The notes under the pieces were generated by a model. The model had not been told where the DNA came from, ran no database searches, and saw only the letters and a list, made by a program, of their open reading frames with translations. The translations under genes were made by a program, and so were the position numbers. 64,000 bases of DNA. It comes from a virus (lineage: Duplodnaviria; Caudoviricetes). Shown in pieces: positions 13,379 to 14,096 of this stretch (its first letter is position 1; the number at the start of each line of letters is the position of its first letter). The DNA lies in IMG/VR virus record IMGVR_UViG_3300013121_000034, positions 32,001-96,000 of that record; one strand, 5' to 3'.

Positions 13379-13457
13379 TTCGCGTGTGGTAAAGAAGGAA
13401 CGCTAGAGGGCATCGAATGCGGGTCCGTAGCTCAGTGGTAGAGCATCTGACTTAAAA

Positions 13458-13532
13458 GGGCTGGTAGCTCAGTGGTAGAGCAGCGAACTTTTAATTCGCA
13501 TGTCGAGGGTTCAATTCCCTCCCAGCCCTCCA
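13458..13532 (+). tRNA. tRNA-Lys(UUU), nested inside the split tRNA
   Basis: GGGCTGG/CCAGCCC acceptor, GCGAA-CTTTTAA-TTCGC anticodon arm, GGTTCAATT T-loop, encoded CCA. Confidence 0.92.
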
Positions 13533-13576
13533 AGTCTAATTTTAGACACAATGGTTAGTAACCAAAAGGTCTAAAA

Positions 13577-14029
13577 ATGAAGAAGCCTGACTATCACGCA
13601 AAAGATAAAGGAACATTGGGTGAAATTGCGGTTGCAAAATACTTAATGCAAATGGGAATACCAACGTTTGTAGATATGGGTGATAATACAAAGGTAGATT
13701 TAATCGCATTAAAAAATGATGTGCCCATAAAAATTCAAGTAAAAGCATACAAGAGACAAAAAGGAAAATCTAACGTTATTGTATACAATACAAAAACAGG
13801 TCCCGGATATAAGTATCGTTACAAAGAAAAAGATTTTGATGTTATGGCAGTCTATCTATATGAAATAGATGAATTATTCTTTATATGCATTCAAGATTTA
13901 CTCAAAGTGAAAACATCTATGGTAATTCGATTAAAGAAACCAAAAAATAATCAAAAGAAAAATCTAAATTTAGTAGATAAATACCGTTCATTTAATAGAG
14001 CGGTTAAAAGGGCAGGATTAATCTGTTAA
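13577..14029 (+). CDS. PD-(D/E)XK homing-type endonuclease (I-Ssp6803I/PDDEXK_5-like)
   Basis: KG.LGE..V...L, VDLI, KIQVK, Y....FD..AVY motifs; much more AT-rich than flanks; stop codon lies in the 3' tRNA half. Confidence 0.8.
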   Translation: MKKPDYHAKDKGTLGEIAVAKYLMQMGIPTFVDMGDNTKVDLIALKNDVPIKIQVKAYKRQKGKSNVIVYNTKTGPGYKYRYKEKDFDVMAVYLYEIDELFFICIQDLLKVKTSMVIRLKKPKNNQKKNLNLVDKYRSFNRAVKRAGLIC

Positions 14030-14096
14030 TCAGGGGGTCGTAGGTTCGAAACCTACCGGACTCACCATTCGATGAAACGTTCACGTGGGGTGTGAA

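Follow-up and report, generated by a model that had tools for sequence, protein, structure and literature searches.

The window, a 64,000-nucleotide stretch taken from a 129-kb virus record that is itself about 48% complete, contains a tRNA-Lys gene split by an insert that carries a second, complete tRNA-Lys gene and the gene for a homing-type endonuclease. In the interpretation that we consider likely, the insert is a homing cassette without a ribozyme, sitting at the standard site of its nuclease family between U34 and U35 of the anticodon; the interrupted outer gene is freshly wrecked, its place being taken by the nested tRNA as a working spare. That homing endonucleases can reside in essential genes is generally explained by self-splicing. 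This locus suggests a second solution, which is to bring along a spare copy of the gene being broken.

The elements of the locus, in window coordinates, are the following:

13421..13453, + strand: 5′ half of the outer tRNA-Lys(UUU) (ARAGORN in intron mode; joined halves; break site as in related group I introns).
13452..13464, + strand: left copy of a 13-nt direct repeat, TTAAAAGGGC[T/A]GG (repeat search).
13454..13457, + strand: AAAA linker from the left junction to the nested tRNA (direct sequence reading).
13458..13532, + strand: nested complete tRNA-Lys(UUU) (ARAGORN; Rfam tRNA model, 76 bits against a cut-off of 29; tRNA scan of the whole record).
13533..13576, + strand: spacer (inverted repeat; fold).
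13577..14029, + strand: intact gene for a homing-type PD-(D/E)XK endonuclease of 150 aa (PF11645 profile; 2OST match).
14004-14016: right copy of the direct repeat, in the last codons of the nuclease gene.
14026..14067, + strand: 3′ half of the outer tRNA-Lys(UUU) (sequence reading, ARAGORN and joined halves).

Run in intron mode, ARAGORN calls one tRNA over 13421-14067. Its 5′ half comprises the acceptor strand, the D arm, the anticodon-stem strand TCTGA and residues C32, U33 and U34 (ending ...TCTGA-CTT). The 3′ half resumes with U35, U36, A37 and A38 and continues through the stem strand TCAGG, the variable loop GGGTC, the T arm, CGGACTC, A73 and CCA. Joined together, the two halves form a canonical 75-nt tRNA-Lys(UUU) with all stems paired, A73 and an encoded CCA, the break falling between U34 and U35. 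Since the stems of both halves are fully paired, and the nucleotide at the break is shared with dozens of related intron-bearing tRNA-Lys genes, the split tRNA is not a chance pattern.

The insert itself spans 572 nt (13454-14025) and is made up of the AAAA linker, the complete tRNA-Lys(UUU), a 44-nt hairpin spacer and the nuclease ORF, whose TAA stop codon (14027-14029) lies within the 3′ tRNA half, where the same three nucleotides are U36-A37-A38 of the outer tRNA. In the nested tRNA, the anticodon stem is GCGAA/TTCGC, the Lys anticodon loop is perfect and the CCA is encoded; the discriminator is U73, as opposed to the A73 usual for tRNA-Lys. This tRNA is the sole intact tRNA-Lys gene detected by the tRNA scan of the 129-kb record (about 48% complete). 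The nested and outer tRNAs are 72% identical, with 6 of 10 anticodon-stem positions differing (the stem count read by eye from the sequences), and have in common a 27-nt stretch at 89% identity. Within the spacer, an imperfect hairpin at 13540-13576 (-11.6 kcal/mol, z = -1.8) carries at its tip the palindrome GGTTAGTAACC (13553-13563), and its 3′ arm covers the AAAAGG ribosome-binding site of the nuclease (13564-13569). A promoter scan detected none within the cassette.

The nuclease matches PF11645 (PDDEXK_5) with a score of 68.6 bits, the family cut-off being 26.1 (E=7e-19; the match covers 135 of the 138 positions of the profile), and also matches 2OST, which we take to be the PDB entry for I-Ssp6803I, at E=8e-6. 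Residues GD36 and Q54-V-K56 are invariant across six relatives and align with the GD and QVK of 2OST. The ORF has a G+C content of 26-35%, against 50-56% in the flanks and about 52% in the genome. An identical protein (P0001) is found on three contigs; the nearest relative, P0002, is 58-59% identical, and it is only with P0002 that the window enzyme groups (support 100/99). The anatomy of the locus thus agrees, to the base where positions are concerned, with an earlier note written from the DNA alone, which had described a tRNA gene cut in its anticodon loop, a complete tRNA-Lys(UUU) 4 nt from the left junction (if the outer gene is Lys, one of the same specificity and diverged sequence), and an AT-rich PD-(D/E)XK endonuclease with its stop codon in the 3′ tRNA half.

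The earlier note had further stated that the insert leaves no room for a ribozyme core. Only 4 + 44 nt lie outside the tRNA and the ORF, and the Rfam group I models, which that note had suggested running, gave no match to a group I intron at E<=10. Because Rfam performs weakly on ORF-bearing introns of this family (27 bits for L002, 23 bits for L008 and no match for L015), we turned to nhmmer, with one profile for the 5′ core (P1-P6) and one for the 3′ core (P7-P9), both derived from a set of 20 related group I introns of phage tRNA-Lys genes. Both profiles recovered the left-out intron in seven valid leave-one-out controls, with E from 1e-9 to 1e-36, and with all filters off they found nothing in 13300-14200 at E<=100, in full accord with the claim. 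By this profile search the nuclease gene is not enclosed by a self-splicing element, and the outer gene cannot self-splice. As in true introns, the 5′ exon has U, and the insert G, as its last nucleotide (...ACTT↓AAAA and ...ATCTG↓TTAA, the arrow marking the junction), a pattern that fits descent from, or targeting of, a true-intron site. No P1 helix that would place a U.G pair at the 5′ splice site is present; the sole pairing in this region, GACUU/AAGUC, has U-A as its last pair and joins segments 80 nt apart, around the nested tRNA.

Homologues of the nuclease were surveyed at 110 loci from viral contigs, metagenomes and prokaryote genomes, yielding 93 distinct nucleases with that of the window included. 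About 85 of the 93 loci tie the nuclease to tRNA-Lys. Ribozyme-profile matches lie nearby at 39 of the 93, although in at least four of these (L017, L031, L071 and L077) the match is upstream of the nuclease and seems to be part of a neighbouring intron-bearing tRNA. The split tRNA could be read at about 30 of the 39, and there the exons are always intact: the gene is tRNA-Lys(UUU) with its break between U34 and U35, except for a few that are tRNA-Lys(CUU). The tRNA-Lys(CUU) introns (L057, L063, L068, L133, L134 and L136) apparently lie one nucleotide further, at CTCT↓TAA, after position 35. All ten homologues from bacterial genomes (L127-L136) reside in group I introns of chromosomal tRNA-Lys genes; the bins concerned are Chloroflexota/Anaerolineae, Peribacteria and Rhodothermales, and not one of these loci is ribozyme-less or has a spare tRNA.

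A complete tRNA-Lys adjoins the nuclease, without a ribozyme, at 46 loci including the window. At 24 of the 93, again counting the window, the tRNA lies 7-60 nt upstream of the nuclease. At another 21 it lies downstream, with its first 9-27 nt overlapping or closely following the end of the ORF, and at one locus there is a tRNA-Lys on both sides; the last eight have neither a ribozyme match nor an adjoining tRNA-Lys. Where the tRNA is downstream (L010, L016, L024, L032, L033, L059, L070 and others), the ORF usually enters it and stops in the D arm, and protein tails such as G-x-V-A-Q and GAVTQLAE are thus encoded by the acceptor strand and D arm of a tRNA. In the nuclease tree the layout classes are mixed within well-supported clades, indicating that the layouts interconvert.

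Several loci resemble the window in part. In L088, nothing but the nuclease gene interrupts the tRNA-Lys, at the position that is also cut in the window. L059 begins with a 5′ half that ends in CTT, followed by the nuclease and then by a different, complete tRNA-Lys, whereas the order in L061 is complete tRNA-Lys, nuclease and T-arm remnant. The full arrangement recurs in L060, where an outer 5′ remnant (acceptor strand and D arm) comes first, then a complete tRNA-Lys, after it the nuclease, and last the outer 3′ remnant CGGTTCC-A-CCA, which still pairs with the 5′ acceptor strand. The L060 nuclease is only 37% identical to that of the window, and the locus is a decayed copy of the window layout. 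The outer halves have decayed in three loci without a ribozyme (L060, L059 and L061), whereas exons are intact in every ribozyme-bearing split that could be read. This difference is our main argument for viewing the outer gene of the window as fresh wreckage rather than as a pair of spliced exons. The low G+C of the ORF in a 52% G+C genome, together with the undamaged state of the halves, fits a recent arrival, even if perfectly intact halves are a picture also expected from continued selection and not from recency alone.

We propose that the nuclease, like I-Ssp6803I, would recognise the anticodon stem-loop DNA of intact tRNA-Lys genes and break it there. Repair from a cassette-bearing genome would then copy the whole 572-nt insert, the tRNA halves and the flanking genes providing the homology. 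The filled allele would be immune, as the insertion splits the target site. The nested tRNA is probably immune too, given that 6 of its 10 anticodon-stem positions differ from those of the outer gene; however, the anticodon stems of the tRNAs split by homologues vary widely, which leaves in doubt how far into the stem the enzyme's recognition extends and renders the immunity of the spare uncertain. The outer tRNA would be dead. Ordinary tRNA processing would release the nested tRNA from the shared transcript and thereby restore tRNA-Lys(UUU), a function for which the nested gene is the candidate supplier because no other intact tRNA-Lys gene is present in the record. A spare part located 44 nt upstream of the nuclease gene would in this way do the job that is done by self-splicing in the related introns. 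Translation of the nuclease would be kept low by the spacer hairpin over the ribosome-binding site and, with time, decay of the outer halves would lead to the common layout of a free-standing nuclease next to tRNA-Lys.

The notion that the element destroys its target and supplies the replacement had been put forward in the earlier note; it fits the decayed L060 and the many loci in which the nuclease stands beside a complete tRNA-Lys, with cleavage, resistance of the spare and mobility of the whole unit as its inferred steps. As to origin, the cassette may have arrived as a pre-formed module of tRNA-Lys plus nuclease, or it may derive from a group I intron whose ribozyme was lost. Comparison of the upstream and downstream flanking proteins, or of the nuclease alone, with viral contigs identified no related phages, and blastn and tblastn against GenBank phages returned only generic tRNA matches or nothing. 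The pattern designed for the uninterrupted allele yielded same-stem tRNAs with other acceptor stems and no empty allele.

Alternatively, the locus might be a one-off accident, in which a single episode of illegitimate repair, or a former group I intron in decay, caught a nearby tRNA-Lys gene and a nuclease gene within the resident tRNA. The two would form no mobile unit, and the nuclease would perhaps be inactive. The mixture of intron-borne and free-standing forms in the tree does indicate that layouts change often, and remnants of several kinds exist (L059, L061, L088). In addition, the presence of the 13-nt repeat at both ends of the insert points to a possible rearrangement, and the GACUU/AAGUC pairing could be the relic of a P1 helix. 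We nonetheless regard an accident of this sort as unlikely. The ORF is intact and keeps its catalytic motif, about half of the loci pair the nuclease with a complete tRNA-Lys, and the sharing of the ordered layout by L060, at 37% nuclease identity, implies that this layout arose or spread more than once.

The left copy of the 13-nt repeat crosses the left junction and reaches 7 nt into the nested tRNA. A repeat of this length was reached in 0 of 100 shuffles. We considered whether repetition of the tRNA start at the 3′ end of the nuclease gene might be a general trait of the loci with an upstream tRNA-Lys, and rejected the idea, a similar repeat being present among them only in L004 (arranged Lys-nuclease-Lys) besides the window. 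The repeat may have been left by an earlier arrangement in which the nuclease gene overlapped a tRNA that followed it, or by a tandem duplication.

The flawless outer halves could also suggest a true intron that is removed without a ribozyme: proteins (for example, RNase P acting at the nested tRNA) would cut at the two junctions or close to them and an RNA ligase would close the anticodon loop, so that both tRNAs would be made. There is a possible parallel in the tRNA introns of Lak megaphages, which look like tRNAs and whose mode of removal is given as unknown (PMC6784885). We find this reading very unlikely. The ends of the insert differ from those of the tRNA fold, lying 4 nt before and 493 nt after the nested tRNA, and no known activity would cut between 14025 and 14026. 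A search for a bulge-helix-bulge motif (two 3-nt bulges and a 4-bp helix) across the junctions gave none, the best arrangement forming 2 of 4 central pairs. Decay of the outer halves in L060, L059 and L061 speaks against it as well, as does the decoding anticodon loop kept by the nested tRNA, which a mere processing handle would not need. We give very little credence to the specific proposal that the outer tRNA is still made, with the nested tRNA as the processing handle, a second, unknown cut freeing the 3′ half and a ligase resealing the loop. If true, it would mean protein-only tRNA splicing in bacterial viruses, with two tRNA-Lys species and a nuclease mRNA produced from one gene. RtcB and RNA ligase families were not detected in the half of the genome examined (record about 48% complete), the control for one family having failed; this absence is not informative.

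The DNA alone would permit a junction at CT↓GTTAA, in which case the outer gene was a tRNA-Asn(GUU), the insert lies between the stem and CT-GTT-AA, and the nested tRNA-Lys is no like-for-like replacement. Seven viral tRNA-Asn genes do share the stem and variable-loop context. Yet the discriminator in viral tRNAs with this same anticodon stem and variable loop is G73 in 7 of 7 Asn(GTT) genes and A73 in 2 of 2 Lys(TTT) genes, and the outer gene has A73. The homologous nucleases, moreover, are tied to tRNA-Lys, and their introns are read at CTT↓TTAA in tRNA-Lys genes from phages, metagenomes and bacteria alike, a site identical to the one occupied here. Finally, under the Asn reading the insert would neither end in G nor follow U; under the Lys reading it does both. 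The assignment to Lys, with which the earlier note had found A73 to fit, is therefore supported on each of these counts, and an Asn origin is scarcely tenable. A misjoin of AT-rich foreign DNA into the contig, which the sharp G+C change at both insert ends might suggest and for which the 27-nt, 89%-identical stretch of the two tRNAs could have confused an assembler, has a negligible chance of being correct, as both junctions fall exactly in one anticodon loop with halves that complement perfectly, the identical nuclease protein is present on three contigs and the layout recurs in L060.

Among known systems, I-Ssp6803I is encoded in a group I intron of the tRNA-fMet gene of Synechocystis PCC 6803, and its target is the pseudo-palindromic 23-bp DNA of the anticodon stem-loop (PMC3384342). 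The window nuclease resembles it in its PF11645 membership, its length (150 versus 151 aa), its D...QxK motif and the position of its gene in a tRNA anticodon loop. The two systems differ in that the window has no ribozyme, involves tRNA-Lys(UUU) rather than tRNA-fMet, belongs to a phage and holds a second complete tRNA in the insert. The tRNA-Lys group I introns with PF11645 nucleases in phages and bacteria (L015, L048 and L127-L136, for example) share with the window the site between U34 and U35, a homologous nuclease and an ORF that runs to or near the 3′ junction; in L048, the anticodon stem and variable loop are nearly those of the window's outer tRNA. Unlike the window, these introns keep the core elements TGCGGGAA, AATCCGCAGG and GTCCAGACCACAAC and a P8 hairpin, of which it has none; they have intact exons and are free of any nested tRNA. 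The tail of the window nuclease aligns with those of its intron-borne relatives and ends about 15-25 residues sooner, at the place where the latter encode a core element as 'VQTTT', an observation that belongs with the ribozyme-loss route of origin.

Free-standing homing endonucleases and intronless homing are documented in phages, with SegB of T4 being found in a tRNA gene cluster (PMC2988022, PMC3984707, PMC13096335). Like the window nuclease, SegB is encoded outside an intron, adjoins a tRNA gene and is thought to spread through break repair that co-converts neighbouring DNA. SegB shows no preference for a tRNA isotype (PMC13096335) and has a GIY-YIG fold, as against PD-(D/E)XK here. Whereas elements of the SegB type lie between genes, the window cassette lies inside its target, with both halves left in place and a spare of the same anticodon. 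Devoto et al. 2019 (PMC6784885) describe 'enigmatic' tRNA introns in Lak megaphages and state that one of them 'may encode a tRNA'. These likewise place tRNA-like sequence in the anticodon region of a phage tRNA gene; the text of that report, as searched, mentions no nuclease and gives no mechanism for them. In the window, by contrast, the tRNA takes up only 75 of 572 nt and stops short of the junctions, and a nuclease gene comes after it. Stand-alone PF11645 genes have been counted in jumbo gut phages (PMC12880540). Our literature search found no paper on tRNA-Lys introns with a PF11645 nuclease, or on a cassette that carries a spare tRNA inside its own target.

The loci of this one nuclease family form a graded series, starting with a mobile group I intron and passing through an insert that lacks a ribozyme and sits at the same nucleotide, whether or not a spare tRNA accompanies it, to decaying halves and then to a 'free-standing' nuclease beside tRNA-Lys. 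The series makes the interconversion of intron-borne and free-standing nucleases testable. A bearing on phage defence can also be envisaged. The nuclease AriB of the PARIS system cleaves the anticodon stem of host tRNA-Lys, an attack that phage T5 evades by means of a tRNA-Lys with a variant stem (PMC11464382). By analogy, a nuclease-driven swap of tRNA-Lys alleles with different stems could shuffle a counter-defence trait between phages.

The palindrome at the tip of the spacer hairpin has counterparts elsewhere in the family. An 11-nt palindrome, GATTA(C/G)TAATC, occurs upstream of the nuclease ORF at roughly a third of the loci, in all layouts; it stands 25-50 nt before the nuclease start in L008, L010, L012, L013, L015, L016, L029, L067, L075, L076 and others. 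In the window and in L044 it is symmetrically changed to GGTTA(G/C)TAACC. The palindrome matches the tRNA-Lys anticodon-region DNA GACTTTTAATC at 8 of 11 positions. It could act as an RNA hairpin, or as a pseudo-target bound by the nuclease for self-repression. When nuclease loci were compared, the flanks of the palindrome showed no co-variation with the anticodon stem of the associated tRNA.

Two further arrangements of nuclease or tRNA sequences deserve mention. In L017, the homologous nuclease gene lies between two tRNA-Leu(UAA) genes (2145-2417 and 2941-3214), each of which is interrupted by an ORF-less group I intron about 200 nt long. In the window itself, positions 29172-29199 hold an orphan tRNA acceptor strand and D arm that stop 2-3 nt before an ORF at 29202-29474, and an intact tRNA-Gln (29764-29838) follows about 290 nt downstream of that ORF. 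From its sequence, the orphan may mark a second, older insertion into a tRNA gene of the same phage.
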